Assembly (NCBI GenBank): GCA_013388635.1
Contig: JACAEX010000033.1
Coordinates: forward strand, 2,356 to 66,355
Direction of reading: 5' to 3'
Length of the DNA stretch: 64,000 nucleotides
DNA from: Syntrophaceae bacterium
GTDB taxonomy: Bacteria; Desulfobacterota; BSN033; UBA1163
The notes under the pieces are model-generated. The model did no database searches. It saw only the letters and a list, made by a program, of their open reading frames with translations, and was not told the origin of the DNA. Each line of letters opens with the position of its first letter. Position 1 is the first letter of the stretch. This document shows positions 619-28,582 of the stretch, piece after piece. Made by a program: the position numbers and the translations under genes.

Positions 619-846
619 AGATTTCCTTTCTCACGGAATAATCTGGACTGATTGAATATAATATAAAATATAGCACACCCGTATTGAAAGTAAACCCTTC
701 GCGGATTACCTGAAAATAAAGGTTTCGTCTCAGGGCAAGGATGCGCTTATGGTCCAGAAATCGATAAGGAGATGAGGGCTTGAGGAAATGGGAGGAGAAA
801 GATAGTGTAGAGAACCTAACACTTCTTTACAATGATAATGAAAGTT

Positions 847-910
847 GTCATTCCCGCGAAAGCGGGAATCCGGTTGAAAAGACTGGATTCCGGATCAAGT
901 CCGGAATGAC
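847..910. repeat. REP-like palindromic doublet
   Basis: GTCATTCCCGCGAAAGCGGGAATCC (847-871) followed by the inverted variant GGATTCCGGATCAAGTCCGGAATGAC (885-910). Each half is itself a hairpin. Confidence 0.75.
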
Positions 911-1018
911 GTGATATGTAAATCCATATCCGAAACAGGACACGAGCTACCTTGAACCTGTTGAGCAAAGGTGTTAAGGGAGTATCGAATCAATTGTCAG
1001 GGAAAGAGGTGATTCTTC

Positions 1019-2779
1019 ATGACCGGTAAGAGGATCAGAACGAAAGAGGTCTTGCAGGCCAAGATGGCGGAGAGAGAGACGACCCCACTGTATAACCCTG
1101 AAGCCCTGAAGAAGCTGCGAACGGAATTTGACCGCTGGAGACAATCAACGGTAAGGGAAGAGGACCGAGAGAACTGGTTCGAGATACCCCGGACGGTTCT
1201 TGGGTCAGGGATCCCCAGAGAGATGCTTTACTCTCCCCTCAGCAACCCTGATCTGGATTACCTGCGCGACCTGGGATACTCTGGCCAAGAGCCTTACACC
1301 CGAGGGATTCACCCGAACATGTACCGGGGCAAAGCGTTCACCATGCGGCAGCTCACGGGATTCGGTGGCCCTGAAGAGACGAACCAGAGAATCAAATTCA
1401 TGCTGGCCCATGGCGGCACAGGAGTCAATGTGCTCTTTGACCTTCCGACGATTCAGATGTATGACTCGGATGACCCCATCTCCAAAGGCCAGGTGGGGAT
1501 GTCGGGAGTAGCCATTGACTCGGTGGAGGATATGGACATCGTCTTTAAAGACATCCCTCTGGACGAAGTGACTGTATCCCTCGTGACCCATTATCCGTCG
1601 AACACGGCCATTCTCTTTCCGATGTATCTGGCGCTGGCCGAGAGGAGAGGCATCCCCTGGACGAAACTCCGGGGAAGCGTTCAGAACGATATCACCCTGG
1701 AGGAGGTTGTCCGCAGCGGACCTGAGTACATTCCTCCGAGAGATTGTTTCAGGATCCAGTGCGACAACATCGAGTTCATCCGTGAACATGTTCCTCAATG
1801 GAACTTCGTGACCTATAACGGCTACAACCTCAGGGAGTTCGGGACCTCTGCCGTGACCGAGATGGCGGTGGCCGTAGCCAATGCCATCGAGACAGTCGAG
1901 GAGATGCTTCGGAGGGGCCGGGATGTGGACTGGGTGGCCGAAAGGATCGCCTTCTTCTGGTCACCTGCCAGTGATTTCTTTGAGGAAGTGGCAAGACTGA
2001 GAGCGGTCAGGAGGCTGTGGTACAAAATCATGAAGCATCGGTTTGAGGCGAAGCATCACCGGTCTCTCTGGATGCGGTGCCACGTCCAGACCTCGGGCGT
2101 CTCTCTGAGAATGGAGGAGCCGCTCAACAACATCATCCGAGCGGCTTACCAGGCCCTTTCAGCCGTCTTTGGAGGGGCTCAGTCGCTCCATGTGGACTCT
2201 TATGACGAGGCCTATTCCGTGCCTACCGAGGAAGCGGCCCTCCTCTCTTTACGAACTCAGCAGATCATTCAGGAGGAGACAGGCGTGACCGACGTGGTTG
2301 ATCCGCTGGGCGGCTCTTTCTATGTCGAGGCCTTGACGAACGAGATCGAGAAACGAATCCTTGATGAGGTGGACGAGATCGAAAAGATGGGAGGTTATGT
2401 GACCGCCATCGAAAAGGGATGGCTTCACCAGAAGATTGCCAATTATTTCTGCGAAGAAAGACGGAGGATCGAGGAGGGCGTGATCAAGATCGTAGGCTAC
2501 AACGTTCATCAGGCTCCTCTCGCATTGCCCGCCATCAATGTTTTTCGCTATCCGGAAGGAGTGGAGGAACGGCAGAGAGAGAGGCTGGCAAAGTTGAGAA
2601 GACAACGCGATAACCAGAAGGTGGAGGCGGCTTTGACTGCCCTTGAAAATGGCTGCAAGAGCGGGAAGAACGTGATGGGGCATGCTGTTGAGTGTGCGAA
2701 GGTGGGCTGTACAGAGGGGGAGATGTTCCGCGTGTTTAAACGAGTCTTCGGGCAATGGAAACCGCCGAGTCTCTGGTGA
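1019..2779 (+). CDS. AdoCbl-dependent acyl-CoA mutase, large (substrate-binding) subunit, MCM family, atypical active site
   Basis: Motifs PYTRGIHPNMYRG, TMRQLTGFG, FDLPT, GSVQNDI, EIAKxR-like EEVARLRAVRRLW, HVQTSG, NNIIR, GGAQSLHVDSYDEA, DPLGGSFYVEALT. There is no B12-binding domain in this chain. Confidence 0.92.
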   Translation: MTGKRIRTKEVLQAKMAERETTPLYNPEALKKLRTEFDRWRQSTVREEDRENWFEIPRTVLGSGIPREMLYSPLSNPDLDYLRDLGYSGQEPYTRGIHPNMYRGKAFTMRQLTGFGGPEETNQRIKFMLAHGGTGVNVLFDLPTIQMYDSDDPISKGQVGMSGVAIDSVEDMDIVFKDIPLDEVTVSLVTHYPSNTAILFPMYLALAERRGIPWTKLRGSVQNDITLEEVVRSGPEYIPPRDCFRIQCDNIEFIREHVPQWNFVTYNGYNLREFGTSAVTEMAVAVANAIETVEEMLRRGRDVDWVAERIAFFWSPASDFFEEVARLRAVRRLWYKIMKHRFEAKHHRSLWMRCHVQTSGVSLRMEEPLNNIIRAAYQALSAVFGGAQSLHVDSYDEAYSVPTEEAALLSLRTQQIIQEETGVTDVVDPLGGSFYVEALTNEIEKRILDEVDEIEKMGGYVTAIEKGWLHQKIANYFCEERRRIEEGVIKIVGYNVHQAPLALPAINVFRYPEGVEERQRERLAKLRRQRDNQKVEAALTALENGCKSGKNVMGHAVECAKVGCTEGEMFRVFKRVFGQWKPPSLW

Positions 2780-2846
2780 GGGCGCGATCTCCCCGTTTTC
2801 CAGGGGGTGGGCAACCGATTCAGAAAAGGAGGTCTTTCGGAAAGAG

Positions 2847-3260
2847 ATGGCCGGAAAGGTGAAAGTACTGCTATCGAAGCTCGGTCTGGATGTCCATAAC
2901 CGGGGGCTGATCACTGTAGCAACGGAGTTGAGGGATGCGGGGATGGAAGTGATCTACATCGGCAACTCGCTTCCGCAGGAGATCATCAAAACAGCCATTC
3001 AAGAGGGCGTGGATGTCGTTGGTGTAAGTTCGTTGGGAGGGGCGCACCTGACCTTGGGGAAGGAGCTGATCGAAGAGGCCAAGAAAGAGGGCGTGAAGGA
3101 CCAGATGGTTTTTGTCATCGGAGGCGTATTCCCGCCGGCCGATGCGAAGAGATTGGAGGAGATCGGCTTTGAGGGGACCTTCCTGCCCGGGGCGACTCGG
3201 GAGCAGATCGTCTCCTCAATTCTTAAGATGGCGTCTGCAAAGAAGAAGAAACCTGCCTGA
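2847..3260 (+). CDS. Cobalamin-binding small subunit of the acyl-CoA mutase
   Basis: GLDVHNRG (DxHxxG base-off motif), GVSSLGGAH, IGGVFP. The start is moved to ATG 2847, after AGGAGG and GAAAGAG. Confidence 0.92.
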   Translation: MAGKVKVLLSKLGLDVHNRGLITVATELRDAGMEVIYIGNSLPQEIIKTAIQEGVDVVGVSSLGGAHLTLGKELIEEAKKEGVKDQMVFVIGGVFPPADAKRLEEIGFEGTFLPGATREQIVSSILKMASAKKKKPA

Positions 3261-3307
3261 GGTTCCGTCAGGGGTTTTTCGATAAGAGAAGAAGGAGGTA
3301 GAAAGAG

Positions 3308-4711
3308 ATGAAGCAGTGGCCCCCGAAATATGATCAGTCTTATCTTCCCTCTCCAAGGTCCAAATATTGGAACAAGGATTTGGAAACCATGGACCCCGAG
3401 GAGAGGGAGAAGAAGATTATCCTGCCCAAGCTTAAGGCTCAATTGAAGTATGCCTACGAAAAGTCGGGCCTCTACCGGAGGAAATGGGACGAAGCCGGTA
3501 TCAGGCCGAGGGACATCAGGTCTCTGGAGGATTTTGAACAGATCCCCTTTCTGACCAAAGAGGAGATTCGGCAGGATCAGAAGGAGCATCCTCCTTTCGG
3601 CAGCAACCTGTGCGTTCCTTTGAAGGACCTGGCCAGGGTGCAGGGTACTTCCGGGACGACGGGCAAGCCTACGGCCTTCGGGATCAGCAAGGGAGACATG
3701 GAGCGCATTGCTGAGTTCCATGCCAGGGCCATGTGGGGGTTTGGACTCCGCCAGGAGGACATCGTTTTTATCGGTTCTTTTTTCAGCCTTTACTGGGGAA
3801 GCTGGGGCGCTTTGATCGGCGTCGAACGCCTTGGCGCCGTGGCCTTCCCATTCGGTGCGGGGGTGCCCGGTCAAACGGAACGGGCGCTGGAGTGGATGAA
3901 AGAGGTAAAGCCCACCGCCTTTTACGGGACGCCCTCGTACAGCCTCTACATCGCTGAGAAGGCAAAAGAGAAGGGCCTGGACCCGGCTAAGGATTTCAAC
4001 TTCCGCATTCTCTTCTTCTCCGGGGAGCCGGGCGCAGGCGTTCCTTCGACCAAGAAAAGAATAGAGGAGACCTACGGTGGAATCTGCATTGACTCAGGCT
4101 CCACTGCGGAGATGGCCCCGTGGATGTCGAACTGTGAGTGTGGATGGAGGAAAGGGATGCATCTCTGGCAGGACGTGGTTTATGCCGAGTTGGTGGACCC
4201 CGTTACGAAACGGAGGGTCCCCTATGGGAAAGAAGGGGTTACTGTTTACACTCATCTGGAGCGGACCTCTCAACCCATGATTCGTTTCTGGGCAGGGGAC
4301 CTCTCCCTGTGGGTCAACGATCCCTGTCCCTGCGGCCGGACCTATCCCCGCCTTCCTAAAGGGATCTACGGAAGAGCGGACGATATGTTTGTGGTGAGGG
4401 GAGAGAACGTCTATCCCAGCGCGATCGAGGATGTGATTCGGGGAATCGAAGGATTCGGAGACGAGTACCGGATCATCATCACCCGGGAAAAGGCCATGGA
4501 CGAAATGATCGTTCAGGCCGAATATAGGAGGGGAGTTGCCCCCGAGGTCATTCCTACATTGAAATCGAAGCTTGAGTCGGAGCTGAAATCTCGCGGACTC
4601 CGGTCGGTTGTCCAGATGGTTGAGCCGGATCAGCTTGAAAGAACCGAATTCAAGGCCAGGCGGGTCATCGATCAACGAACTCTGTATGACGAAATCATAA
4701 AAGGAGATTAG
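3308..4711 (+). CDS. AMP-forming acyl-CoA ligase, PaaK family, 2-hydroxyisobutyrate-CoA-ligase-like
   Basis: GTSGTTGKP P-loop, FSLYWGSWG, AFPFGAG, YGTPSY, FFSGEPG, THLERTSQPMIR, CGRTYPRLP, GRADDMFVVRGENVYPS, FKARRVID. These match my recollection of Aquincola HCL. Confidence 0.85.
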   Translation: MKQWPPKYDQSYLPSPRSKYWNKDLETMDPEEREKKIILPKLKAQLKYAYEKSGLYRRKWDEAGIRPRDIRSLEDFEQIPFLTKEEIRQDQKEHPPFGSNLCVPLKDLARVQGTSGTTGKPTAFGISKGDMERIAEFHARAMWGFGLRQEDIVFIGSFFSLYWGSWGALIGVERLGAVAFPFGAGVPGQTERALEWMKEVKPTAFYGTPSYSLYIAEKAKEKGLDPAKDFNFRILFFSGEPGAGVPSTKKRIEETYGGICIDSGSTAEMAPWMSNCECGWRKGMHLWQDVVYAELVDPVTKRRVPYGKEGVTVYTHLERTSQPMIRFWAGDLSLWVNDPCPCGRTYPRLPKGIYGRADDMFVVRGENVYPSAIEDVIRGIEGFGDEYRIIITREKAMDEMIVQAEYRRGVAPEVIPTLKSKLESELKSRGLRSVVQMVEPDQLERTEFKARRVIDQRTLYDEIIKGD

Positions 4712-4730: not shown

Positions 4731-6125
4731 TCATCTCGGTCGGTTCATGGCGAGTCGGCAGCGATAAAGGATCGAGAGGACCTCAAAGGGCTGCTCGATT
4801 TCAAAGAACGTAGGCACTCCACGCGGTTCGACAAAGGCTTTGCAGTCCTCCATGCATTGTTTGTCACCGCTGAAGGTGATGACGATCGGTTTTTCAGGGT
4901 ATTTCCTTGCCAGTTCGACGATAAAATTGTAAGAGGGAATGCCGGTGTCTTTTGTGAGCATGAGAACTGGAATGACGGCATCGATATTCGGATCCTGGAG
5001 CACTGCTTCCATGGCATCCCGGTAAGCAATCTCCACGCCGTGCATGTATGCAGCAGGCCATATATCGACCGGGTTCCTCATCCGGATATAGGAGGGACTC
5101 ATGTCCTGGAGTTTCTGTCGGGTGGCTGGCTCCACATCCGGGACCTCAAGGCCGAGGCGCGCACAGAGGTCGGCAAGGACGACCAGCATGGCTCCTGAGG
5201 GAGCCATAAAGCTGACACGGTTTCCCTTTGGCAGGGGGATCATGGAAAAGGCCTTTCCTGCGAGAATCAGATGGGTGTAATCCCAGATCCGTACGATCCC
5301 TGCCTGGCGAAGCATGCCATCGACGAGTCGGTCCTCGGCGGCCATGGTTGCGGTATGGGCCACTGCCGCATGCTTTCCTGCTTCGGTCACGCCGCCCTTG
5401 AGCATGACGACCGGCTTGATCCGGGTCACCTTCTTAGCAACCTCCAGGAATTCCCTTGGCCGTTTGATGCTCTCGAGGTAGATCAGGATCGCATCGGTTT
5501 CCGGGTCGTCGGCCAGATAGGCGAGCGCTTCGCTCTCTTCCACATCGATCTTATTTCCGAACCCGATCACCCGCGAGACGCCGAAATGCTCACCGGTCAG
5601 GATATACTTCATCGAATGGGTGGCGAAATTCCCGGTCTGTGCGATATAGGAGACCTTTCCCCGGCGTATCTTGCCCAAGGGGAAGAAGGTGGAGGTGAAA
5701 TGATGGGGTGTTGAAGTGTGGCCTGACGTGTTGGGGCCTATCACCCGTATCCCATTCTCACGGATGATATCCGTGAGCTCCTGCTGGATCTGTGCTCCAT
5801 ATTCATCGTACTCGGCAAACCCTCCGGCCGCGAGGACAAAGTGTTTGATCCCTTTGTGAACACATTGTCGCACGGCCTCGGGCGTCTCCTTTGCGGGAAG
5901 GATGATGATCCCAAGATCGATCCCATCGGGCAGGCTTTCGATCGAGGGATGGACAGGCAAGCCCAGGATATCGCCCCCTTTTGGATTGACGAGATAGAGT
6001 TTCCCTTCAAAGCCATTGGCCAGGATGTTCCGGATCACATCATTTCCGGGTTTACCGGCCGTGTTAGAGGCTCCTATGACGGCAACGCTTTCAGGCTCAA
6101 AATAGGCGGACAGTCGGTGTTTCAT
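4731..6125 (-). CDS. NDP-forming acyl-CoA synthetase alpha-type subunit (CoA-binding protein)
   Basis: FEPESVAVIGAS, VIGPNT, IAQTGN, GNKIDV, phospho-His region AAVAHTA, RNPVDI. No ATP-grasp domain. Confidence 0.85.
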   Translation of the reverse strand: MKHRLSAYFEPESVAVIGASNTAGKPGNDVIRNILANGFEGKLYLVNPKGGDILGLPVHPSIESLPDGIDLGIIILPAKETPEAVRQCVHKGIKHFVLAAGGFAEYDEYGAQIQQELTDIIRENGIRVIGPNTSGHTSTPHHFTSTFFPLGKIRRGKVSYIAQTGNFATHSMKYILTGEHFGVSRVIGFGNKIDVEESEALAYLADDPETDAILIYLESIKRPREFLEVAKKVTRIKPVVMLKGGVTEAGKHAAVAHTATMAAEDRLVDGMLRQAGIVRIWDYTHLILAGKAFSMIPLPKGNRVSFMAPSGAMLVVLADLCARLGLEVPDVEPATRQKLQDMSPSYIRMRNPVDIWPAAYMHGVEIAYRDAMEAVLQDPNIDAVIPVLMLTKDTGIPSYNFIVELARKYPEKPIVITFSGDKQCMEDCKAFVEPRGVPTFFEIEQPFEVLSILYRCRLAMNRPR

Positions 6126-6155
6126 TGCGGTAGGCGGTCAGGAAATGGGGATTGC

Positions 6156-7082
6156 CTATCTTCCCTTCTTTTTTGACGACAACTTCTTCCAGTCCATTCC
6201 AGCCCACTCCTCGTAAAGCCTCATGACCACCGTGGCATCGTTTCGCTCCCATCCGCTGTATTGGGTTTTGAGGAGGAACTGGTGGTAGAGCGCGCCCACT
6301 GGAAGAACCACTCCGAGCTGCCTTCCGGTCTCAAGGGAGAGGCCGAGATCTTTGATCGCGAGAACAGCAGGGCCCTTGGGTTCGAAATTGTTGGCCAGCA
6401 TATCCTCTCCCCTGGCAATCAAGAGATCGCTCGAAGCGGCTCCTGAGGTGATCACATCGAACATGACCTTGGGATCGAGACCTGCTTTAAGGCCCAGGAC
6501 CAATCCCTCAATCGCAGCGGCCTGGTTGAGGTAGAGGATGTGGTTGACGACAAGCTTCAGTGTCGCACCTTCACCGCTCTTACCGACGTAGACCGTTTTC
6601 TTACCGATCCGATCGAAGACGGGCTTGATCTTCTCATAGATGGACCTCTTGCCACCTGCCATGAAGACCATGTTTCCAACCCGTGCTTGGGCAGAGGACC
6701 CGGAGATGGGAACGTCCATCCACTCAATCCCTCTTTTCGCAAGCCTCTTGCCCAGGGCCCTGCTCTCCCACGGGGGCGATGTGCTGGTATCCACCACGAT
6801 CTGGCCCTTTCGGGCACCTGCGATCACCCCATCCCTCCCCTCCACGGCCTCGATCACCGCTTTCCAGGTCGGAAGGGAGAGGATGATAAGGTCCGCTCCG
6901 GTTGCCGCTTCTTTTGGAGAGTGGGCGGCCTTCAGGCCGAGGGGAACTAAACCGGAGATCTGTTCCTTGATGATATCGAAACCTGTGACCCGATATCCTG
7001 CCTTCATCAAGAAGGTTGCAATCGGTGTCCCCATCGCTCCCAGGCCGATGACCGAGACATTCCTTATCTCTGTAATTGACAT
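6156..7082 (-). CDS. NAD(P)-dependent beta-hydroxyacid dehydrogenase (3-hydroxyisobutyrate/tartronate-semialdehyde reductase family)
   Basis: VIGLGAMG, DTSTSPP, DVPISGS, catalytic LKLVVN, KDLGL. Confidence 0.9.
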   Translation of the reverse strand: MSITEIRNVSVIGLGAMGTPIATFLMKAGYRVTGFDIIKEQISGLVPLGLKAAHSPKEAATGADLIILSLPTWKAVIEAVEGRDGVIAGARKGQIVVDTSTSPPWESRALGKRLAKRGIEWMDVPISGSSAQARVGNMVFMAGGKRSIYEKIKPVFDRIGKKTVYVGKSGEGATLKLVVNHILYLNQAAAIEGLVLGLKAGLDPKVMFDVITSGAASSDLLIARGEDMLANNFEPKGPAVLAIKDLGLSLETGRQLGVVLPVGALYHQFLLKTQYSGWERNDATVVMRLYEEWAGMDWKKLSSKKKGR

Positions 7083-7140
7083 TTCTTCTCTCCCGTGATT
7101 GACCTTTGAGTAAAGGTTAGGGAAGCCGGTTTGGCCTCAG

Positions 7141-7168
7141 GTAGGGAACGCATATATGCATTCCCTAC
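7141..7168. repeat. GTAG-family REP-like palindrome
   Basis: GTAGGGAACGCATATATGCATTCCCTAC, a near-perfect palindrome starting with GTAG in an intergenic gap. Confidence 0.6.
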
Positions 7169-7201
7169 AAGAACAATCCCCTGACCTTTAGACAAGGTTT
7201 A

Positions 7202-8260
7202 TTATAAATCCTTCAGGTTGACCGGTTTTCCTGTACGGGCTGAGTCAATCGCGGCCCGGATCAAGGTGAGGGCCACCAGGGCTCCCCTTCCATCTGTTTC
7301 CGGTCTCCTTCCGGTGCGGATGCAGTCCGCGAACTCATCGATTTCTTCGAGGATCGGATCGCCCACCGGTAAAGGGATCGTTTCGGGTTTGTCCTTCGTC
7401 TTTTCGAGGATCTGGAGGACCGTATACCTATCCACGACCGACCAGATCTGAAGGTATTCCTCAAAAGGCACGTTCGGCAGAGAAAGCGTGCAGAAGAGTT
7501 GGGCATCGGTGCCGTAGACGTAGACGAAGTTCGTCCTGAGAGAGGCGTAGGTGGAGCCAAGATAGCCGAGGACGCCTGACTCAAATTGAAAGATGGTCAT
7601 GGTGACGTCCTCCACATCGGCTGGGGTGTAGAGCTTATTGAAAAAGGCGAAGACCTTTTGGATCGGGCCGAAGTAGTAGTTCAGCGTGTCGGCATGATGA
7701 ACCCCCATGGTCATCAGCGCGCCTGCGGGACAGCCCGAGTCGTCTCCGAACCATCGCCACTTATCGGGCGTCAATTCGAATCCCAACCTTGCAGAGAAGT
7801 TGGACTCCGCCATGACGGGTTTGCCGATGGCGCCCTGATCGATCAGCTCTTTCACCTTCCGGAATCCGGATAACCGTCGCATGTCGTGGCCGACGAGCAG
7901 GGTCACCTTTGCCTTTTCGCAGGCCTCCACCATCTTCCTCGCATCGGTCAGGGTATTGGCGATCGGCTTGTCAACAAAGACATGCTTACCGTGTTGGGCT
8001 GCTAAGACGGTCTGTTCCGCATGTATGGCATTCGGCGTGGTCAGCAGGATGCCCTCCACATCGTCCCTCTTCAGAAGATCCTCAAAGCTCTTCTCCTGAT
8101 CGCACCCGTACTTCTTGCTGAAGGCCTGCCGCTTCTCCGGTGTCCGGGTGTAGCAGGTCACCATCCTCACCTTTTTGCTTCTCGCCACAGCATTGGCAAT
8201 GACACCGGACCAGCTCCCAATCCCGACGAGAGCAACCCCAACCTTCTCCTGCTTAGCCAT
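7202..8260 (-). CDS. Gfo/Idh/MocA family oxidoreductase
   Basis: VALVGIGSW, TTPNAIH, HVFVDKPIA, GVHHAD, PETDG. Confidence 0.88.
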   Translation of the reverse strand: MAKQEKVGVALVGIGSWSGVIANAVARSKKVRMVTCYTRTPEKRQAFSKKYGCDQEKSFEDLLKRDDVEGILLTTPNAIHAEQTVLAAQHGKHVFVDKPIANTLTDARKMVEACEKAKVTLLVGHDMRRLSGFRKVKELIDQGAIGKPVMAESNFSARLGFELTPDKWRWFGDDSGCPAGALMTMGVHHADTLNYYFGPIQKVFAFFNKLYTPADVEDVTMTIFQFESGVLGYLGSTYASLRTNFVYVYGTDAQLFCTLSLPNVPFEEYLQIWSVVDRYTVLQILEKTKDKPETIPLPVGDPILEEIDEFADCIRTGRRPETDGRGALVALTLIRAAIDSARTGKPVNLKDL

Positions 8261-18685: not shown

Positions 18686-20194
18686 TTAATTGGCCTTCTT
18701 GGAAACGGAAGCGGCAGACCTTCTCAGGTAATGGGTGATGAAGGGAAGGATGGCTGATAGCAGAACGATGAACCACATCACCTGGCACAGGGTTGAATCC
18801 CAGAGGCCGCTGAGATTGCCTTGGGAGATGATCAGGGCCTGCCTGAGCGATCTTTCCATCACAGGTCCCAAAACCAGGCCGATCACCAGGGGTGCAGGTT
18901 CATAGCCGTACTTTCGCATCAGATAGCCTGTGACTCCAGCTCCGAACATCACCCAGACGTCAAATAGATTGAGATTATCTCCGTAAGCGCCGATCACACA
19001 GAGAACGAGCACGATCGGCATCAGGTATCTCGGAGCAACCCGGACAATCTTTGCGAAGATTCCGACAAGGGGCAGGTTCAGGATCAGGAGCATCGCATTG
19101 CCGAGATAAAAACTTCCGATCACCCCCCAGAAGAGCTCAGGTCGGTCTCGAAGGAGGAAGGGTCCTGGGGTGACTCCGTGAAGGAGCATTCCGCCGAGCA
19201 GCACGGCCGTGGTCGGAGTAAAAGGCAAGCCTAAGGAAAGCAGAGGCACCATGGCCCCTCCTGCAGCTGCATTGTTGGCAGATTCAGGGCCAGCCACCCC
19301 CTCGATAGCCCCTTTGCCGAATTGGTCGCGACGTTTGGAAAGTCGCCGTTCCAGGCTGTAGGAGGCAAAGGCTGCCATGGTCGCAGCAGGTCCAGGCAGG
19401 AGGCCGATCAGGAAGCCTAAGACAGAGCCCCGTGCCATCGGGGCTAAAGAACGCTTCAACTCCTCCCGATCGGGGTAGAGCTCTCGAAATCTGACGGGAA
19501 ACAGCCCCATTGGTTTCTCTTTTTCTGCCATCACGGAGAAGACCTCTGCAACTCCAAAGAGTCCAGTTGTCAGGGCAATAAAACTGATACCTCCCTGTAC
19601 GGATTCAAAACCAAAAGAGAAACGTTCCACACCGCCCACGGGGTCGAACCCAATGGTTGAGAGCATCAAACCGACCATGATCATGATCAAGGATTTCACA
19701 CGGGATTTCCCGGTCAGGTTCGAAAGTAAAATCACACCCAGGACGGTCAGAACAAAATATTCCGCAGGCCCGAAGGCAAGGGCAGACCTTGCCAGCAGCG
19801 GAGCGAAGAACTGCAATGCGATGACGCTGACCGTCCCGGCAACAAAAGAGCCGATGGCTGCGATGGCCAGCGCAGCTCCAGCCCTTCCTTTTTTGGCCAT
19901 TGCATAACCATCCAAGGTTGTGACAACACTGGCAGGCTCTCCAGGGACATTGACGAGGATTGAGGTGGTCGAACCGCCATACATGGAGCCGTAGTAGATA
20001 CCGGCCAGCATGATCAGACCGGCGGTCGGCCCCAGTTTAAGCGTCAAAGGGATGACCAGGGCCATGACAGCCGCAGGGCCAAGCCCGGGCAGCACTCCCA
20101 CCAATGTGCCGACGACCGCACCGGCAAAGCAGGCGAGGAGATTGGCAGGCTGAAAGGCGATCAGAAGAAATGATAAGATGGTGCGGTCAGCCAT
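18686..20194 (-). CDS. tctA: TTT large permease
   Basis: GVLPGLGP, YYGSMYGGS, NVPGEPAS, GVAGPESANNA, GVTPGP. Confidence 0.93.
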   Translation of the reverse strand: MADRTILSFLLIAFQPANLLACFAGAVVGTLVGVLPGLGPAAVMALVIPLTLKLGPTAGLIMLAGIYYGSMYGGSTTSILVNVPGEPASVVTTLDGYAMAKKGRAGAALAIAAIGSFVAGTVSVIALQFFAPLLARSALAFGPAEYFVLTVLGVILLSNLTGKSRVKSLIMIMVGLMLSTIGFDPVGGVERFSFGFESVQGGISFIALTTGLFGVAEVFSVMAEKEKPMGLFPVRFRELYPDREELKRSLAPMARGSVLGFLIGLLPGPAATMAAFASYSLERRLSKRRDQFGKGAIEGVAGPESANNAAAGGAMVPLLSLGLPFTPTTAVLLGGMLLHGVTPGPFLLRDRPELFWGVIGSFYLGNAMLLILNLPLVGIFAKIVRVAPRYLMPIVLVLCVIGAYGDNLNLFDVWVMFGAGVTGYLMRKYGYEPAPLVIGLVLGPVMERSLRQALIISQGNLSGLWDSTLCQVMWFIVLLSAILPFITHYLRRSAASVSKKAN

Positions 20195-20207
20195 GGATCA
20201 TCTCTCT

Positions 20208-20699
20208 CTAAAAAAGGATCCCTCTGGAAAAGGAGAGCTTTAACCAGACCTCGAAGAGGAGGTAACAGAAGAGGTTCGTTCCTGCAGCGAGGGTTACTGG
20301 CCCTTTCCAATCCTTAGCTCCCATCAGTCTGCTGGAGACGATCACGAATAAGAAGGTGGATGTGAAAAAACCAACTAACTTCACCATCGAGAGATAGATG
20401 ATGAAGACCGCAATCATAAGTAGGACTTTTCTCTCTCCTGTATTTCTTTGGAGGATTTCTCTCAAGAATCTTATTTTCTCTTTGCTTCTCTCCTCTTCGG
20501 TCAGCGATCCGGTTTTCCGAAAGGCGCGAATGAACTCAGAGGCAGCCAAGATCACCCATATCCCACCCGCGAGGAGCGGGAAGACCCCAGGCCCGGGGTT
20601 TGCCCACTGGTCCAGGGGATACCTGGTATCGTAGAGCAGAAAAAAGGCTCCACACAGAATCAGGACGAGGCTGCTTGCGATCTCTTTTCGGATCCCCAT
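20208..20699 (-). CDS. tctB: TTT small permease
   Basis: PGPGVFP motif, 4 TM segments, located between tctC and tctA. Confidence 0.88.
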   Translation of the reverse strand: MGIRKEIASSLVLILCGAFFLLYDTRYPLDQWANPGPGVFPLLAGGIWVILAASEFIRAFRKTGSLTEEERSKEKIRFLREILQRNTGERKVLLMIAVFIIYLSMVKLVGFFTSTFLFVIVSSRLMGAKDWKGPVTLAAGTNLFCYLLFEVWLKLSFSRGILF

Positions 20700-20705
20700 A
20701 GAAGG

Positions 20706-21692
20706 CTATTTTGAAAGTCCGGCAGCGATCATGATCTCCTTTGTAATCTTGTCGACCTCACCCACGAACTTGTAAAAGGCTACAGGGTCGAGATACTGGG
20801 GCGTGGTGCCCACGGAGGCAGCGAACTCGGCCCACTCCTTGCTCTCCACCGCTTTCTTGACAATGGCTGTCATCTTATCGATGACCGTTTTGGGCGTTCC
20901 TTTGGGAGCTGCAAACCCCCTCCACTGGTCAAAGACCAGGTCCACGCCCGATTCCTTCATGGTGGGCACGTTTGGCCAGATGCTAATCCGTTTCTCACTG
21001 GTCACCGCCAGAACTCGAACCTCTCCTGCTTTGACCTGGCTCAGGATCTCTGCAGGATGCTGGCTCGAGGCATCGATCTTACCGCCCATCAGGGCAGCCA
21101 CGGCCAGTCCGGTGCCAAATGGAACATGAACGAGCGGTGCGCCAATCTTGGCAGCCATGGCTACTGGTACCATGTGGGTCACGCTTCCGATTCCGGAGTT
21201 GCCCACGGTGACCTTATTGGGGTTCTGTCTGATATAGGCAACGAATTCCTTAAAGTCTTTCCATGGAGCTGTCTTATTGACTGCAATCGCAACCGTCTCA
21301 AAACCGACTCCGGCGATATGCTCGAATGCCCGATAGTCAAAAGAGATCTGTTTTCTCGCCGCCAGGGTATTGATGGCACCGGAATACCAGATCAGGGTAT
21401 AGCCATCGGGTTTTGCCCGATGGACCTCATTGTAGGCGATCGCTCCGCCAGCGCCTGTCACATTGCGAACCACTAAGGGCTGACCGAGATCCCGCGAGAT
21501 GATCTCGGCGAGCTTCCGAGCCTGTATATCGGCAGCTCCTCCGGCTCCAAACGGATTGATCAACTCCACCTGTTTCTCGGGCCATGCCTCCTTCGCCAGG
21601 CTGCTCCCAGCGCCCCACACCAGTATGGCTGTCAATAGGGTTAAGAAGAGCCATCTCCAATAGGTCTTTAAAGCGGCATCCTTTCTCAACAT
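20706..21692 (-). CDS. tctC: TTT substrate-binding protein
   Basis: WPEKQVELINPFGAGG, NVTGAGG, PDGYTL, WRGFAAPKGTP. Confidence 0.9.
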   Translation of the reverse strand: MLRKDAALKTYWRWLFLTLLTAILVWGAGSSLAKEAWPEKQVELINPFGAGGAADIQARKLAEIISRDLGQPLVVRNVTGAGGAIAYNEVHRAKPDGYTLIWYSGAINTLAARKQISFDYRAFEHIAGVGFETVAIAVNKTAPWKDFKEFVAYIRQNPNKVTVGNSGIGSVTHMVPVAMAAKIGAPLVHVPFGTGLAVAALMGGKIDASSQHPAEILSQVKAGEVRVLAVTSEKRISIWPNVPTMKESGVDLVFDQWRGFAAPKGTPKTVIDKMTAIVKKAVESKEWAEFAASVGTTPQYLDPVAFYKFVGEVDKITKEIMIAAGLSK

Positions 21693-21744
21693 GGTCGTCC
21701 TCCTTTCCTTACTCTGGATCGGTCGTCAAAGATGGATCCGAGGC

Positions 21745-22665
21745 CTACAGCATGGCCCAGGCCTCTTTGATCACCCGCTTTGTGTTTGCGATGATCACTT
21801 CGGATGTCTCCTCCGCAAGAAGTGGTCTGACCTCCGCACTGAGCACCGACCTTTTCTGCGGATTCAGAAGCTTCATATCGAGCAGGAGTTTGAAGAAGTC
21901 TCTCACCTGGGCGGTGTCGATCTCGCCGCCCGGCATTCCGAACCGGGGTTGCAGGTCACCGTAGGTCGGATCCCTCCGGTTGCGGAATGAACAATTTCCA
22001 ATGTGGAAGTGGAGAGGAAACTGCTTGACCAGCGGCAGCGCCTGATCCGGTGTCTCCCTGAGCAAGGGGAAATGGGAGAGGTCTGCAAGGACGCCAAAAT
22101 TTTTAAACTCCTTGCGAACCTCGGCTGCCACCTCGGCTGCATCCTTGAAATGGCCGATGAGAAAACATTTGTCGATGTCGTAGTCGAAGACTTTCAGGTA
22201 GATCTCCATCGGGCCCTGTTCCTTCGTGTACTGGCAAACTTCTTTGAGCGAGTCGATGAGAATCTTTTTGGCCTCTTCCTTTTTCTCCTCTCCGGGATGC
22301 TTTCCTGAAAAGACCCGGATGCAGGAGGCCCCGAGATCAAAGGCCTCGTTGGTTCCATTCTTCATCGCGTTGATCGCCCTTCTTCGCTCCTTTGGATCGA
22401 GGGCATTGAGATCGAGCTTGTTGCTGAACATCCTCGGCTGGTTGGCATAGCAGACCTCCATGTGAGAGGTCTCAAGGAGCTTGCGGGCCTCATTCCGCAC
22501 CTTGACATCTTTTATCCAGCCCACCTCCACAGCCGTCCAGAAGTCGTCCTCCACAATCTTCCGGAGCGTCTCGACAACAGGCCCTTCTCCCTCCGAGACC
22601 TGTGGAAATGCCTTGAAGTGCACGATCCCCAGTTTCATGTAACGATAGATTGAGAAATTTTCCAT
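21745..22665 (-). CDS. Xylose-isomerase-like TIM-barrel protein (sugar phosphate isomerase/epimerase family)
   Basis: DLSH, HFHIGN, YGDLQPRFG, AEVRP. Start MENF at 22665 after GAGGAGGAG. Confidence 0.75.
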   Translation of the reverse strand: MENFSIYRYMKLGIVHFKAFPQVSEGEGPVVETLRKIVEDDFWTAVEVGWIKDVKVRNEARKLLETSHMEVCYANQPRMFSNKLDLNALDPKERRRAINAMKNGTNEAFDLGASCIRVFSGKHPGEEKKEEAKKILIDSLKEVCQYTKEQGPMEIYLKVFDYDIDKCFLIGHFKDAAEVAAEVRKEFKNFGVLADLSHFPLLRETPDQALPLVKQFPLHFHIGNCSFRNRRDPTYGDLQPRFGMPGGEIDTAQVRDFFKLLLDMKLLNPQKRSVLSAEVRPLLAEETSEVIIANTKRVIKEAWAML

Positions 22666-22690
22666 CGATCTCCTCCTCAAAACTTACGAA

Positions 22691-23827
22691 TCAATGAACC
22701 TTGACCACGACCTTGATCGCATCTCCGATCCTCTCACGAAAGTATTTGAAGGCGGTCGGCAGCTCCTCCAGGGGAAAGGTGTGGGTATGGATCAGCTTGG
22801 CATCAAAACGTTTCTGCGCCATCAGCGCGGCCGCGCGATGGGTAGCGCTTCGGCCTTCACCCCGGATGCCGAAGACATAAATATTGTTGCGCACTAATTT
22901 GGCAAGATCCACGGGCACCGCCTCTCCGGGGAAGGCGGCCAGACAGATCCGGCCTCCCCGGTTGACCATGTCCATCGCCTCGTTCAGGGCATTGGGAGCG
23001 CCTGAACATTCCATCACGTAATGGACCCCTCTGCCTTTGGTGATCCGCTTCACCGCCTCAACGGGATCCTCATTTTTGACGTTGATCACGTGGTCCGCAC
23101 CTAACCTGGTCCCCAGGTTCAGTCTGGAGTCCCGTGTCCCTGTGAGGATCACAGGCTGGGCTCCTAAGGCCTTGCCCACGGCCACGCTCATCAGCCCGAT
23201 CGGGCCAGGGCCGGTCACAACCAGGCTCTCTCCCGCAATCAGACCACCCAGGACATCGAGACCGTACATCGCTGTCCCAGCGGTGACGATCAGTGTGGCC
23301 TCCTCATCACTCATGCCATCGGGCACATGGACCAGCGTATTGATATGGTTGACCGCATACTCTGCGAAACCACCATCGGTCGTGAAGCCATTGGCACGGT
23401 GGCCCTTGTTCTGCTCACCATAGTTTAAGCCATAATTGAGACAGGACGTATACATGCCCATCCGACATCTCTCACAACGGCCGCAGCCGGCGTGGATCTC
23501 CACTGCGATGCGATCCCCGATTTCGTATTCGTCCACGCCTGGCCCGAGTTTGACCACAGTGCCCATATATTCATGGCCTGGTGTGAAATTCTTATGGAAA
23601 GGGAGCCCCCCCTTTACCCACGCAGGCAGGCCTTTGGTCAGGATCTCCACGTCTGTTCCGCAGATCGCAACCGCATCAATGCGCACCAGGACCTCGGCAG
23701 GCCCTGGTTCCGGAACCGGTTTTTCGACCAGTCGCAGTTCTTCCGGACCATCCAGAACCCATGCCTTCATGGTTTTGGGAACTGAGAGGCCCTCTTTTTG
23801 ATCGGACGTTCTCATCACTGCCTCCAT
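22691..23827 (-). CDS. Zn-dependent medium-chain alcohol dehydrogenase
   Basis: ICGTD, PGHEYMG, CGRCERC...C structural Zn site, GPGPIG, ECSGA. Confidence 0.92.
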   Translation of the reverse strand: MEAVMRTSDQKEGLSVPKTMKAWVLDGPEELRLVEKPVPEPGPAEVLVRIDAVAICGTDVEILTKGLPAWVKGGLPFHKNFTPGHEYMGTVVKLGPGVDEYEIGDRIAVEIHAGCGRCERCRMGMYTSCLNYGLNYGEQNKGHRANGFTTDGGFAEYAVNHINTLVHVPDGMSDEEATLIVTAGTAMYGLDVLGGLIAGESLVVTGPGPIGLMSVAVGKALGAQPVILTGTRDSRLNLGTRLGADHVINVKNEDPVEAVKRITKGRGVHYVMECSGAPNALNEAMDMVNRGGRICLAAFPGEAVPVDLAKLVRNNIYVFGIRGEGRSATHRAAALMAQKRFDAKLIHTHTFPLEELPTAFKYFRERIGDAIKVVVKVH

Positions 23828-23830
23828 TTT

Positions 23831-24724
23831 CTATCCTTTCCAGAATCGACCGGGCCAATCCCTCTTCTCATCCGGGACCTTGAAATCGAACTTCTTTACC
23901 TCTTCGAGGAAGGCGGCCAGGTGGTCGCTGATCCTCTCGAAAATGGCAATGCCCTGCTTCTCACTCGACCTGAGCGGGTTGCCGATGGTCGCCGTGTCCG
24001 AGTACTCGTGGTGGAGCATCGGGACGAAGATATTCTCAGACCCCTGAAAGATGACGGTGTTGGTCCCATCCTTCTTGGAGAAGGCAGGCCCCATCCACTT
24101 TGGGGCGTGGGCACGATCGGGTTTGGCCCGCTCCATGAAGACCGAGCCCTCATAGATTCCCTTCTCCTTCATATAGGCAATGGTCGTGGAGGTCTCGAGC
24201 TCTCCTGCATGCCAGCCAGGTGTCTCCTCAGGAGGACCCTGGAGAACGTCAGCGACCACCGCGCATTCCCTCTCCGTAGGGGTCTTGTAGTAGGCACAGA
24301 AGCAACCGGTCTCAGCCCTCAGGGTGCGAAGGACCTCTCCCTGAGCACCCATGTTGGTGCCATGATGGGAGACATAGACCAGTTTGTTGAAGCCTGCGAA
24401 GATCAGGCTGCGGCCGATCGCATAGAGAACCTGACGGTAGACCTCGGCAGGAAGGGAGATGCTGCCTGTGCCCCAACCCGGCTCGCCCATATGGTGAGGC
24501 GAGAGGCCAAAGGGCAGGAGCGGAGTATAGAGGACTTTGGCCTTTATCGCAGCCCTCTCCACGCTTCCCATCGTGGTGTAGGAATCGACTCCAAGGGGTA
24601 CATGGCTGCCATGCTTTTCGCAGCTGCCAACAGGAATCATGACGACGTCATTGCCTGCCTTCAGATATTCGGCGATGTCCGTCCAGGGTAGCTCCAATAG
24701 GTTGTACTTTTTTAGTTTTGCCAT
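23831..24724 (-). CDS. Creatininase-family hydrolase
   Basis: PVGSCEKHGSHVPLGVD, SPHHMG, SHHGTN, WHAGELETS, GNP. Confidence 0.88.
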   Translation of the reverse strand: MAKLKKYNLLELPWTDIAEYLKAGNDVVMIPVGSCEKHGSHVPLGVDSYTTMGSVERAAIKAKVLYTPLLPFGLSPHHMGEPGWGTGSISLPAEVYRQVLYAIGRSLIFAGFNKLVYVSHHGTNMGAQGEVLRTLRAETGCFCAYYKTPTERECAVVADVLQGPPEETPGWHAGELETSTTIAYMKEKGIYEGSVFMERAKPDRAHAPKWMGPAFSKKDGTNTVIFQGSENIFVPMLHHEYSDTATIGNPLRSSEKQGIAIFERISDHLAAFLEEVKKFDFKVPDEKRDWPGRFWKG

Positions 24725-24763
24725 CTTGACTCTCCTTTCTTCTCGTTTTAGTCATCATTCTTC

Positions 24764-25369
24764 TTAGCCGTTAACGCTATGAAGAAATGCGACCTTTGCG
24801 CAATCCTCCACCAGGTCGGCAATGTAATAGGCGCTTTCAAGATCAGGTCCGACTGCAATGATGCCGTGGCCTTTGAGAAGGTAGGCCTTGGCCTCCATAC
24901 TCTCTTTCACTGTCTCTGTCACATAATCGCACAGCTCCTTCGTTCCCATAAAGGCAAATTGGACCAGAGGGACCTTCGCGAGATTGACCATTCCGGGCGC
25001 GGTCAGAATGGGAAGGGGTTTATCTTTCAAAGAGAGGGCAGTGGCAAAGGGAGGATGGAGATGGGCAATCGCCATCACATCCCCTCTCAATCGATAGATG
25101 GACGTGTGGAAGGGTGTCTCTTTGGAGGGTTTTAAATCCTTCTTACCCTTCAGGAGATTTCCTTCGATGTCCACTTCAATAATGATCTCGGGTGTGATAT
25201 CTCTTAACGATATCCCACTCGGGGTGATGAGCACACGTTCGGTTTCAGGAATTCGAATGCTGAGATTTCCTCCCCTGGCTGCCACCAATCCCCTCTCATA
25301 GGAGAGGCGCGAAAATCTGGCCAGATCATTCTTATATTTGCTCAGTTTATCTCTCTTTTTCTTAACCAT
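24764..25369 (-). CDS. Class II aldolase/adducin family protein
   Basis: GGNLSIR, ITPSG, PSKETPFH, HLHPPFA, LLKGHG. Confidence 0.9.
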   Translation of the reverse strand: MVKKKRDKLSKYKNDLARFSRLSYERGLVAARGGNLSIRIPETERVLITPSGISLRDITPEIIIEVDIEGNLLKGKKDLKPSKETPFHTSIYRLRGDVMAIAHLHPPFATALSLKDKPLPILTAPGMVNLAKVPLVQFAFMGTKELCDYVTETVKESMEAKAYLLKGHGIIAVGPDLESAYYIADLVEDCAKVAFLHSVNG

Positions 25370-26873
25370 TTGGTTTCATCCTTCTACGGGACAAGAGATG
25401 GAATCGATTTCTGAAGAAGGGGATTTCCTTCAGGGTCAAATAGATCAGGATCAGGATCAGGATGATGCAGATCGGCCTGGTGAAGAAGGGGAGAAAGGAG
25501 TAACTGCTCGTCAGGATAGCCCTGCGGAACTGGACATCGATCAGATCTCCCAGGACCATTCCCAGGACCAGCGGAGCGACATCGAACCCAAAACGCCTCA
25601 TCAACAGACCCAGAATGCCGAAGAGGAAAGAAAGGTAGACATCGAACATATTGGAATTGACCGCATAAGACCCGATGGTGCAGAGGATGATGACCACGGT
25701 CATCACCGCCCTTCTCGGCAGTTGCAGGATCTTTGACATCGGCTTGGCCAAAGAGAATCCCTGGAGCGCAAACATGATGTTGCTCGCAAAATGGATCGCA
25801 ACGACCGCATAGATCCAGTGGGGCTGCTCGATCCACATGGAGGGCCCTGGCCTCAGACCGTGGACCAGCATCATTCCCAAGACAATGGCGGTCGTGGCAT
25901 CTCCTGGGATCGCCAGTGTAAGCAGAGGCAGATAGACACCTGCGCAACAGGCATTGTTGGCTGTCTCTGCACCGATGATGCCCTCAGGATTTCCCTTCCC
26001 AAACATTTCTGGATGCTTGCTCGACCGTTTGGCATGGTCATAACCCACCCAGGCAGCAATATTGGCACCGGTGCCTGGCAGCGCTCCGATCAGAAAGCCG
26101 AGGAAGGTCACCTTTATGGTGAGCCACATCCCCCGGAGATATTGATGAAGAGGTGGAAGGACACCGCTCTTCCCCTGAATCGCTTTTCCCTCTGTGGTCT
26201 GGATGAATTCTGACAGGGCCTCTGCCACGCCGTAAAGGCCGATCAGTGCTGGAATATAGGAGATGCCGCCTTCGATCTGGGTGATTCCGAATGTGTAACG
26301 GAGCGTCCCGTGAAGGGGATCCACGCCTACGAGGGAGAAGAGGATGCCGATGATCCCGGCGATCAGCCCCTTGATCGTTGAGCCTGCGGAAAGGTTGGCG
26401 CAGACAAAGATGCCAAAGATGGAGAACCAGAAATATTCCCAGGGGCCAAATTTCAGGGCCAGCTCTGCGACCAGAGGGGCGGAGAACAAGAGGATCAATG
26501 TTCCGATGATTCCTCCTGTGAAGGATTGGAGCGTGCTGATCCCGATCGCCCTGCCTGCTTCACCCCTGAGGGCCATGGGGTAGGCCTCCAGAGCTGTCGC
26601 AGCGGCTGCAGGTGTTCCAGGGACATTGAGGAGGGTTGCTGAGAGGCTTCCACCGTAAGTCGAGGCGGTATAGGCTGCAATCAGGACCAGCATGCCGTTG
26701 AAGGGCGACATCCCATAGGTCAGGGAGACGAGCAGGGAGATCGTCATCGTGCTCGAGATTCCAGGCATGGCACCGCAAAGGAGCCCGAGGAAGCTGAACC
26801 CTGCGAGCATCAGAAGCCTGCCAGGCGTGAGGATGTCAAGAAATTGGTTGAAGAGAAGACCTGCATCGATCAT
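25362..26873 (-). CDS. tctA: TTT large permease
   Basis: GAMPGISS, YGGSLSA..NVPGTP, ETANNA, IPGDA, GLRPGP. Confidence 0.92.
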   Translation of the reverse strand: MIDAGLLFNQFLDILTPGRLLMLAGFSFLGLLCGAMPGISSTMTISLLVSLTYGMSPFNGMLVLIAAYTASTYGGSLSATLLNVPGTPAAAATALEAYPMALRGEAGRAIGISTLQSFTGGIIGTLILLFSAPLVAELALKFGPWEYFWFSIFGIFVCANLSAGSTIKGLIAGIIGILFSLVGVDPLHGTLRYTFGITQIEGGISYIPALIGLYGVAEALSEFIQTTEGKAIQGKSGVLPPLHQYLRGMWLTIKVTFLGFLIGALPGTGANIAAWVGYDHAKRSSKHPEMFGKGNPEGIIGAETANNACCAGVYLPLLTLAIPGDATTAIVLGMMLVHGLRPGPSMWIEQPHWIYAVVAIHFASNIMFALQGFSLAKPMSKILQLPRRAVMTVVIILCTIGSYAVNSNMFDVYLSFLFGILGLLMRRFGFDVAPLVLGMVLGDLIDVQFRRAILTSSYSFLPFFTRPICIILILILIYLTLKEIPFFRNRFHLLSRRRMKPNG

Positions 26874-27403
26874 AAATAGGTCCGGCCAATCATGAATTTT
26901 AATAGATATTCAAAGACCCCGAGCCTCAGGGGCAATCCGAAGATACAGGAAAAGATTGCGAAGAGACCGACCACCGTTGTAAAAGCGACGATGACTGCGT
27001 AATACCATTTGATACGGGGTGCATAGATCCGGATTCCAATCACGACGAATAATAGACTTGCGGGATAGAATTGGAGGTAAGAGATGCTTACAATGAATAG
27101 AAGAACAAAGGCAATGGTGAAGAGGGCTCTATGAAATTCACGGTTTTTTAAAAAGAGAAAGAGATGGAGAAAGGCCTTCCCATTCGACCCCGCTCCGAAG
27201 AATCTTCCGCCCTGGCTCCGGGCCTTGATCATAAGGCCAGATCCCAATCCTGCCAGAATGATCGACAGGCCTATTGGAACCGCTGCTGGAGCATCGATCC
27301 AGCGGCCCGGGATGGGTAGAGAGGCGCTGTAAAGGATCAGAAAGATAGCCACGCCTATGATCAGGATTCCAAGAAAGAGATCCTCTCTGGGCTGATCGGC
27401 CAT
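26870..27403 (-). CDS. tctB: TTT small permease
   Basis: 4 TM segments, overlaps the tctA start. Probable start MADQ after GGAG. Confidence 0.8.
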   Translation of the reverse strand: MADQPREDLFLGILIIGVAIFLILYSASLPIPGRWIDAPAAVPIGLSIILAGLGSGLMIKARSQGGRFFGAGSNGKAFLHLFLFLKNREFHRALFTIAFVLLFIVSISYLQFYPASLLFVVIGIRIYAPRIKWYYAVIVAFTTVVGLFAIFSCIFGLPLRLGVFEYLLKFMIGRTYL

Positions 27404-27505
27404 GGGTTTGCTCCGGCTCGTTCTTTTGGAGACTAATGCGTAAAAGGATGGGAGGAATGGCACGATCGATTAAAAGATGTAAAAACCATCCCTCCCTTAG
27501 CCCCT

Positions 27506-28543: not shown

Positions 28544-28582
28544 CTCTCTCTCCTTTCTCGAAGAAATAGGGTTTAGACTATC

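Follow-up and report, generated by a model that had tools for sequence, protein, structure and literature searches.

An adenosylcobalamin-dependent acyl-CoA mutase with an unusual binding pocket and its HCL-type ligase in a Syntrophaceae bacterium

Two lineages of 2-hydroxyisobutyryl-CoA mutase have been described, HcmAB and RcmAB. The gene for 2-hydroxyisobutyryl-CoA ligase (HCL), hcl, clusters with meaH and either hcmAB or rcmAB, and these genes are usually preceded by one for a GntR regulator (Rohwerder et al. 2020, PMC7176365). For RcmA from Bacillus massiliosenegalensis (BmRcmA) the first-shell residues I95, V122, V172, H174, Y252 and F296 have been published (PMC11599936, Supplementary Figure 6 data), and RCM enzymes also act, if weakly, as lactyl-CoA mutases (PMC11599936). 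A FabG-annotated dehydrogenase and MeaB adjoin both the ‘RcmAB-like’ mutase of Desulfococcus biacutus and its homologue in Desulfosarcina cetonica, and the D. cetonica mutase cluster serves higher ketones too. Here we describe a cassette encoding both subunits of an adenosylcobalamin (AdoCbl)-dependent acyl-CoA mutase and a ligase on a stretch of 64,000 nucleotides from a hot-spring anaerobe, a Syntrophaceae bacterium (assembly GCA_013388635.1, contig JACAEX010000033.1, positions 2,356 to 66,355), which as a whole is called the window below. A first-pass annotation of this DNA had proposed a new pathway in which a carboxylated, alpha-quaternary acid is activated and then rearranged. Its list of characterised enzymes was incomplete as it omitted RcmAB, which the family of the window mutase resembles most, and the cassette most likely represents the known pathway for 2-hydroxyisobutyrate in a variant form rather than a new route for a carboxylated acid.

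The cassette, the mutase pocket and the ligase

The three genes lie on the plus strand and make up an operon-like cassette comparable in kind to the hcm/rcm–hcl clusters already known. The large, substrate-binding mutase subunit (1019–2779, 586 aa) is matched by Pfam MM_CoA_mutase (PF01642) with 567 bits over residues 63–578 and by TIGR00641 with 550 bits (cut-off 304), while the equivalog model for methylmalonyl-CoA mutase (MCM) reaches 465 bits against a cut-off of 876 and NCBIfam gives a generic subfamily model only. After a gap of 67 nt follows the B12-binding small subunit (2847–3260, 137 aa), which starts with MAGKVKV behind an AGGAG-type ribosome-binding site, sits inside a plus-strand open reading frame at 2682–3260 and carries the DxHxxG motif as DVHNRG (2889–2906). 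It is recognised by the Pfam B12-binding model and by TIGR00640 (107 bits, cut-off 57), and in every related locus with sequence available such a small subunit adjoins the large one. Another 47 nt separate it from the ligase (3308–4711, 467 aa), an HCL-type member of the PaaK family with the Pfam domains AMP-binding and AMP-binding_C_2. No convincing terminator was found between the three genes, terminator-like matches being no more frequent than in shuffled sequence. The mutase gene is preceded by a non-coding leader (640–1018, plus strand) with two short, perfect hairpins at about 845–910, TCCCGCGAAAGCGGGA and ATTCCGGATCAAGTCCGGAAT, over which Rfam gives a weak, sub-threshold FtrB match (29 bits, gathering score 66); a search of this leader revealed no cobalamin riboswitch.

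To place the pocket residues we used HMMER alignments to the structures 1req, 2xij and 4r3u, in which the motifs are free of gaps and residues 112, 232 and 270 of the large subunit fall opposite Tyr89, Arg207 and His244 of MCM and opposite Ile90, Gln208 and the corresponding His of HcmA. A MAFFT alignment of 273 sequences concurs and puts Leu139 (1433–1435) at Asp117 of HcmA and Val122 of BmRcmA. The residues that the first-pass annotation had named, Leu112 (1352–1354; also the position of BmRcmA Ile95), Arg232 (1712–1714) and Asn270 (codon from 1826), are therefore where it had put them. None of the described signatures is present: of Tyr89, Arg207 and His244, as found in MCM and ethylmalonyl-CoA mutase (ECM), only the Arg is retained next to Leu112 and Asn270, the Phe at 89 and Gln at 207 of isobutyryl-CoA mutase (ICM) and IcmF are Leu and Arg (IcmF 178 bits), and Ile90, Asp117 and Gln208 of HcmA are Leu112, Leu139 and Arg232. 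Tyr269-Asn270 (1823–1828) correspond to Tyr243-His244 of MCM and are, like Arg232, invariant in the family. The pattern L-[L/I]-R-Y-N is present in all 120 closest cluster representatives (74–100% identity), and distant members down to 54% identity still retain V/I189, H191, Q222, R232, Y269 and N270. At position 112 the main clade has L and a single member, L017 from Actinomycetota, has I; at position 139 L, I, V and A occur. An Asn at the position of His244 is not rare, with 21 of 150 representatives of the whole mutase superfamily having it. The superfamily contains dozens of uncharacterised pocket patterns, and about ten other uncharacterised clusters also combine an Arg at the 207 position with the absence of Tyr89.

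A partial agreement was obtained with BmRcmA. Adding a constant offset of 17 to its six first-shell residues leads to L112, L139, V189, H191, Y269 and F313 of the window protein, four of which are identical (V, H, Y and F), the remaining two being L for I and L for V. Val172 and His174 of BmRcmA thereby coincide with the segment Val189-Thr190-His191 (1583–1591), where MCM, 2-hydroxyisobutyryl-CoA mutase (HCM) and ICM-like sequences have Thr and Asn, and I and V at the positions equivalent to 95 and 122 occur within the family in L017, L018 and L020. Among 270 aligned mutases the spacing 27/50/2/78/44 of these residues is found only in the 120 close homologues and in one unrelated representative, and the interval of 78 residues is 75 in MCM, HCM and ICM-like sequences. 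From this comparison RcmA probably belongs inside or next to the family of the window mutase, which would then be an RcmAB-like lineage. Matching by mass and isoelectric point gave no counterpart of the published D. cetonica protein.

The likeness of the ligase to HCL, noted already in the first pass, is confirmed: it matches 2-hydroxyisobutyryl-CoA ligase (6hdw) with 548 bits (E 2e-163) and PaaK with 240 bits. It is 52.5% identical to HCL from Aquincola tertiaricarbonis L108 and 50–53% identical to five HCM-linked HCLs, and as these five are 44–98% identical to each other the window ligase lies within their diversity and closer to HCL than to PaaK, as judged from sequence. Homologues of HCL on plasmids (Methylibium PM1, Xanthobacter Py2, Mycobacterium ELW1 and Natrinema) adjoin canonical HcmA genes, and all four of these mutases as well as 4r3u show I/D/Q/H in the pocket. 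A comparison of 14 family-linked ligases with the five HCLs gave 10 consistently different positions, none of which adds a positive charge. The motifs FSLYW and DSGSTAEMAPW, in which changes of the ligase pocket had been suspected, are indeed present, and two changes are consistent, Met to Thr at residue 266 (GSMAE to GSTAE) and Val to Cys at residue 260, both in the acyl-pocket motif of PaaK-type enzymes. The two flagged Trp residues do not count as such changes, since genuine HCLs linked to HCM (ELW1, Py2 and Natrinema) have them too.

The mutase family and its gene neighbourhoods

In a neighbour-joining tree of 149 sequences the mutases with H/R/Y/N in the pocket are monophyletic (100/100 bootstraps) and are placed outside the HCM, MCM, ICM-like and pivalyl-CoA mutase (PCM) groups; no firm sister group appeared in this tree. 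Tree and alignment agree with the earlier proposal of a distinct and conserved clade, separate from MCM, ECM-like (Y/R/H), ICM-like (F/Q/H), HCM (I/D/Q/H) and PCM sequences. The family is large, with well over a hundred clusters at 90% identity, and deep-branching, and all members found are from uncultured anaerobes. Its hosts are Desulfobacterota, a phylum rich in it, Chloroflexota, Actinomycetota and Bathyarchaeia from hot springs, aquifers, peat and sediments. All members are publicly annotated as ‘methylmalonyl-CoA mutase’. A search of 1.84 billion representatives yielded one at 55% identity with LARYN and, as the following match, one with only 43%, and homologues of the window protein, of L017 and of an outlier (P0123) were metagenomic proteins only. 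This outlier (L040, 520–1815) is a lone relative of 431 aa, truncated at both ends and 59% identical to the family, in which Gln replaces Arg at position 232; it has no close relatives among 5.8 billion proteins. A tblastn search identified no family member on plasmids, the best match being 44% identical, and the top plasmid matches from Brevibacillus, Deinococcus and Ilyobacter were dismissed as ordinary MCM loci, in which MeaB, an epimerase or a carboxyltransferase is encoded beside the mutase.

In order to see which genes accompany the family we compared 33 loci, all of them from metagenome-assembled genomes (MAGs) or metagenome contigs of Syntrophales and other Thermodesulfobacteriota, Dehalococcoidia and other Chloroflexota, Actinomycetota and Bathyarchaeia. 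Two arrangements can be distinguished. In type A, represented by 17 loci (the window and 16 others with ligase orthologues of 67–86% identity), the ligase is located directly 3' of the small subunit, and in some of these loci a divergent GntR/FCD regulator and a FabG-like short-chain dehydrogenase occur, singly or together; the order of regulator on the opposite strand, mutase subunits and ligase was seen in nine relatives, the window not being among them. The best match of the family-linked short-chain dehydrogenase among solved structures is the (3R)-hydroxyacyl-CoA dehydrogenase 2et6. In type B the ligase is absent (10 loci with enough sequence), and seven of the ten carry an HgdAB-like 2-hydroxyacyl-CoA dehydratase, mostly with its activator ATPase nearby. 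Several type B loci also encode MeaB, a short-chain acyl-CoA dehydrogenase similar to butyryl- and acryloyl-CoA dehydrogenases, a MaoC hydratase, a FabG-like short-chain dehydrogenase or an Hbd dehydrogenase, and an archaeal-type acetoacetyl-CoA thiolase with DUF35. MeaB adjoins the mutase in L017–L019, L021 and L023. The acyl-CoA dehydrogenase scores highest with the acryloyl-CoA reductase AcrC (505 bits), below the cut-off of 640. Genes for a CoA-transferase, malyl-CoA lyase or methylsuccinyl-CoA dehydrogenase were syntenic in none of the 33 loci.

As both an HCL-type ligase and an HgdAB-type dehydratase supply 2-hydroxyacyl-CoA, this class of compound is suggested as the substrate of the mutase, and since the remaining genes of type B process short (C4) 3-hydroxyacyl-CoA, a reaction from 2-hydroxyacyl- to 3-hydroxyacyl-CoA is indicated. 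By analogy, the gene context of both types would follow the reaction logic of HCM. The type B clusters (L002, 6655–14121; L018, 4982–11800; L019/L021; L023, 2570–11750; L038, 595–7785) could be an undescribed anaerobic route that interconverts methacrylyl-CoA or isobutyryl-CoA and 3-hydroxybutyryl-CoA. They occur in Chloroflexota, Bathyarchaeota and some Syntrophaceae MAGs, where an HdrD-like Fe–S protein is also encoded.

A few further observations concern related clusters. The haloarchaeal HCM–HCL cluster on a plasmid of Natrinema zhouii (L034, 6215–15025) is canonical and includes a thiamine pyrophosphate-dependent enzyme and an M24 Xaa-Pro-peptidase-like gene, a distant homologue of which (30% identity) stands beside the family clusters L014, L016 and L025. 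A gamma-carbonic-anhydrase-like hexapeptide protein is shared by the hcm clusters of PM1 and Py2 and by L001 and L004.

Substrate and reaction of the mutase

We lean towards an HCM/RCM-type 2-hydroxyacyl-CoA mutase that works together with an HCL on 2-hydroxyisobutyrate or a close analogue, a reading that draws on sequence comparison. The ligase would use ATP and CoA to adenylate and thioesterify a small 2-hydroxy acid substituted at the alpha carbon, for which 2-hydroxyisobutyrate or a closely similar acid is the default candidate. Both mutase subunits with AdoCbl would then abstract a hydrogen from the methyl group and shift the CoA-thioester carbon to the neighbouring carbon, and the product would be a 3-hydroxyacyl-CoA, most likely (R)-3-hydroxybutyryl-CoA, which might enter acetyl-CoA metabolism by way of a separately encoded 3-hydroxyacyl-CoA dehydrogenase and thiolase. 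In the pocket the methyl side of the substrate would be lined by Leu112 and Leu139. Arg232 is not proposed to bind a carboxylate here; together with His191 it would form hydrogen bonds to the substrate hydroxyl, and Asn270 would stand in for His244 at the thioester oxygen, an exchange that is maybe tolerable in strict anaerobes.

Several observations weigh against this assignment. The invariant Arg232 occupies the carboxylate-binding position of MCM, which is Gln in HcmA, and the hydroxyl-binding Asp117 of HcmA is replaced by Leu and His244 by Asn. The window cassette is not adjoined by MeaB, a GntR regulator or a 3-hydroxyacyl-CoA dehydrogenase, and a MeaB homologue was found neither by tblastn in the first 15 kb nor anywhere else in the 64 kb. 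The link to RcmA draws on six published residues and their spacing. No member from a cultured organism was among the family members found, and sequence nearly identical to the cassette was detected in hot-spring metagenome DNA runs only. Finally, an HCL-like ligase with 57% identity to that of the window is paired, along with a MaoC protein, with a different mutase (P0122). As this mutase also adjoins an HCL-like ligase, the likeness of the ligase does not fix the substrate, and HCL-type ligases partner at least three types of mutase pocket. The P0122 mutase itself (L044, 5252–8789) is of an uncharacterised type with V/V/I-Y/G/Y-Q at the same pocket positions.

How do the other explanations compare? 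That the enzyme acts by the same chemistry on another small 2-hydroxyacyl-CoA seems unlikely, though it is the least unlikely of the three alternatives. Candidate reactions are lactyl-CoA to 3-hydroxypropionyl-CoA (a natural ‘Lcm’), 2-hydroxybutyryl-CoA to 3-hydroxyisobutyryl-CoA, which would join the breakdown of valine and isobutyrate to crotonyl-CoA via the HgdAB-type dehydratase, and 2-hydroxy-2-methylbutyryl-CoA to 3-hydroxyvaleryl-CoA. At least six first-shell residues differ from HcmA, with L139, H191 and R232 being bulkier, and the two consistent exchanges in the acyl-pocket motif of the ligase, the best score of the type B dehydrogenase with AcrC, the weak lactyl-CoA mutase activity of RCM enzymes and the use of the D. 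cetonica cluster for higher ketones all fit a different acyl group. AcrC-like scores are, however, to be expected of any butyryl-CoA dehydrogenase, a lactyl-CoA mutase would be redundant beside a dehydratase and a hydratase, the thiolase/DUF35 and 3-hydroxyacyl-CoA dehydrogenase neighbours suit C4 better than C3 compounds, and the sequence features do not discriminate among these substrates.

The carboxylated quaternary acid of the first-pass annotation, with 2,2-dimethylmalonyl-CoA going to methylsuccinyl-CoA or methyltartronyl-CoA to malyl-CoA, is improbable. In its favour, Arg232 is aligned exactly with MCM Arg207 and invariant, so that it could bind the carboxylate as in MCM, the smaller Leu in place of Tyr89 would make space for an additional alkyl group, and the GntR regulator beside the malate-thiokinase-like and lyase genes at 46–50 kb is 41% identical to the family-linked one. 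Yet an Arg without Tyr89 is not specific to this family as mentioned above, the ligase lies inside HCL diversity and has gained no cationic residue among its 10 differences, and where the ligase is missing its place is taken by a 2-hydroxyacyl-CoA dehydratase and C4-type beta-oxidation enzymes and not by enzymes for dicarboxylates. The CoA-transferase, malyl-CoA lyase and methylsuccinyl-CoA dehydrogenase mentioned above were syntenic in none of the 33 loci. The genes at 47–50 kb, which the product had been thought to feed, are 42 kb away and nowhere else syntenic with the family, and this part of the proposal was abandoned. What survives of it is the fully substituted alpha carbon, which a 2-hydroxyisobutyrate-type acid would have; for the carboxylate Arg232 speaks alone, with ligase and neighbours to the contrary.

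An ordinary methylmalonyl-, ethylmalonyl-, isobutyryl- or pivalyl-CoA mutase with unusual residues is by far the least probable explanation. It would agree with the public annotation of all members and with the Leu that the PCM candidate Xaut_5043 also has at position 89, but the family is monophyletic outside the groups in question, shares only 35% identity with this candidate and about 40% with MCM, falls far below the cut-off of the MCM equivalog model and lacks the epimerase and carboxyltransferase neighbours of true MCM loci.

Coming back to the preferred mutase and ligase for 2-hydroxyisobutyrate or a close analogue, such a function would make tertiary 2-hydroxy acids a common substrate in anoxic habitats. 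The cultured bacteria known to metabolise 2-hydroxyisobutyrate number only a handful. Where this acid comes from in nature is recognised as an open question (Rohwerder et al. 2020, PMC7176365). The family could also offer an oxygen-free and, as we infer, probably (R)-specific mutase scaffold for the production of 2-hydroxyisobutyrate or methacrylate precursors and for the engineering of lactyl-CoA mutases. It is conceivable, if rather doubtful, that the invariant Leu/His/Arg/Asn pocket accepts a substrate used by no characterised acyl-CoA mutase, such as lactyl-, 2-hydroxybutyryl- or a carboxylated hydroxyacyl-CoA. Together with the HgdAB-type dehydratase of the relatives this would amount to an undescribed anaerobic route between branched C4 acids (isobutyryl- or methacrylyl-CoA) or C3 acids and linear C4 or C3 acyl-CoA, widespread in uncultured Syntrophales, Dehalococcoidia and Bathyarchaeia. 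Arg232 and Asn270, if absent from RcmA, would mark a new specificity signature.

The rest of the window and comparison with known systems

Convergent to the cassette lies a minus-strand operon (4731–8260) with genes for an alpha-domain protein of ADP-forming acyl-CoA synthetases, which has no ATP-grasp beta partner nearby, for a dehydrogenase similar to tartronate-semialdehyde reductase and 3-hydroxyisobutyrate dehydrogenase, and for a GFO/IDH/MocA oxidoreductase. A link to these genes was rejected, as they are not conserved beside the family in any other locus. Three sets of tripartite tricarboxylate transporter genes (TctC/B/A) are found within 13 kb at 18686–32057, interleaved with genes for a creatininase, a class II aldolase, a Zn-dependent alcohol dehydrogenase and a xylose-isomerase-like TIM-barrel protein. 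Two tandem HdrD/GlcF-like CCG-domain Fe–S proteins beside an FAD-linked oxidase (42099–45855) represent a second glycolate- or D-lactate-oxidase-like set besides the one at 51.8–55.9 kb. The GntR/FCD regulator with 41% identity to the regulator 5' of the family clusters in other MAGs is encoded at 46045–46746 (minus), divergent from malate-thiokinase-like (46873–49423) and HpcH/malyl-CoA-lyase-like (49558–50511) genes, and the region 46045–55880 also contains a formyltransferase and GlcD/E/F-like glycolate oxidase genes, followed by a TRAP transporter at 56–59 kb. A functional link of the cassette to the thiokinase-like, lyase and GlcDEF genes was dismissed because of their distance and lack of synteny elsewhere. 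With three Tct sets and two TRAP systems the organism looks like a scavenger of organic acids.

Compared with known systems, MCM (1req from P. shermanii and human 2xij) shares the fold and the equivalents of Arg207, Gln197, Tyr243 and Gln330 with the window mutase, which differs by having Leu for Tyr89 and Asn for His244 and by its position outside the Y/A/R/Y/H group. Xaut_5043/5044 of Xanthobacter autotrophicus Py2, which we take to be the pivalyl-CoA mutase of Kitanishi et al. 2015, has the Leu at the Tyr89 position and a PaaK-family ligase nearby in common with the cassette, but it has no Arg at 207 and Gln-His instead of Tyr-Asn at 243/244, and its ligase is only 29% identical to that of the window. 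IaaGH-type indoleacetate mutases and alkylsuccinate mutases were discarded as models, as the neighbourhood contains no hydantoinase-like, CoA-transferase or glycyl-radical genes.

The same combination of a two-subunit AdoCbl mutase and an HCL-family ligase is known from the HcmAB and HCL systems of A. tertiaricarbonis L108, Methylibium petroleiphilum PM1 and X. autotrophicus Py2. HcmA (4r3u) is the best solved match of the large subunit (434 bits), and the GntR gene 5' of the mutase recurs in the relatives of the window. The two differ in the pocket, which reads L/L/V-H/R/Y-N in the window and I/D/T-N/Q/Y-H in HcmA at an overall identity of 39–43%, and in their organisation, as the window has the order large subunit, small subunit, ligase and no MeaH, whereas the HcmAB system is arranged as small subunit, ligase, meaH and large subunit. 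RcmAB, the (R)-specific mutase of Kyrpidia tusciae (RcmA, UniProt D5WTR7) and B. massiliosenegalensis (RcmA, WP_019152977), shares the 78-residue spacing and the linkage to HCL with the window family and differs at positions 95/122, which are I/V in BmRcmA and L/L in the window. The RcmAB-like systems of D. biacutus and D. cetonica have FabG-like, (R)-type dehydrogenases as neighbours and belong to the phylum Desulfobacterota, both as in the window family.

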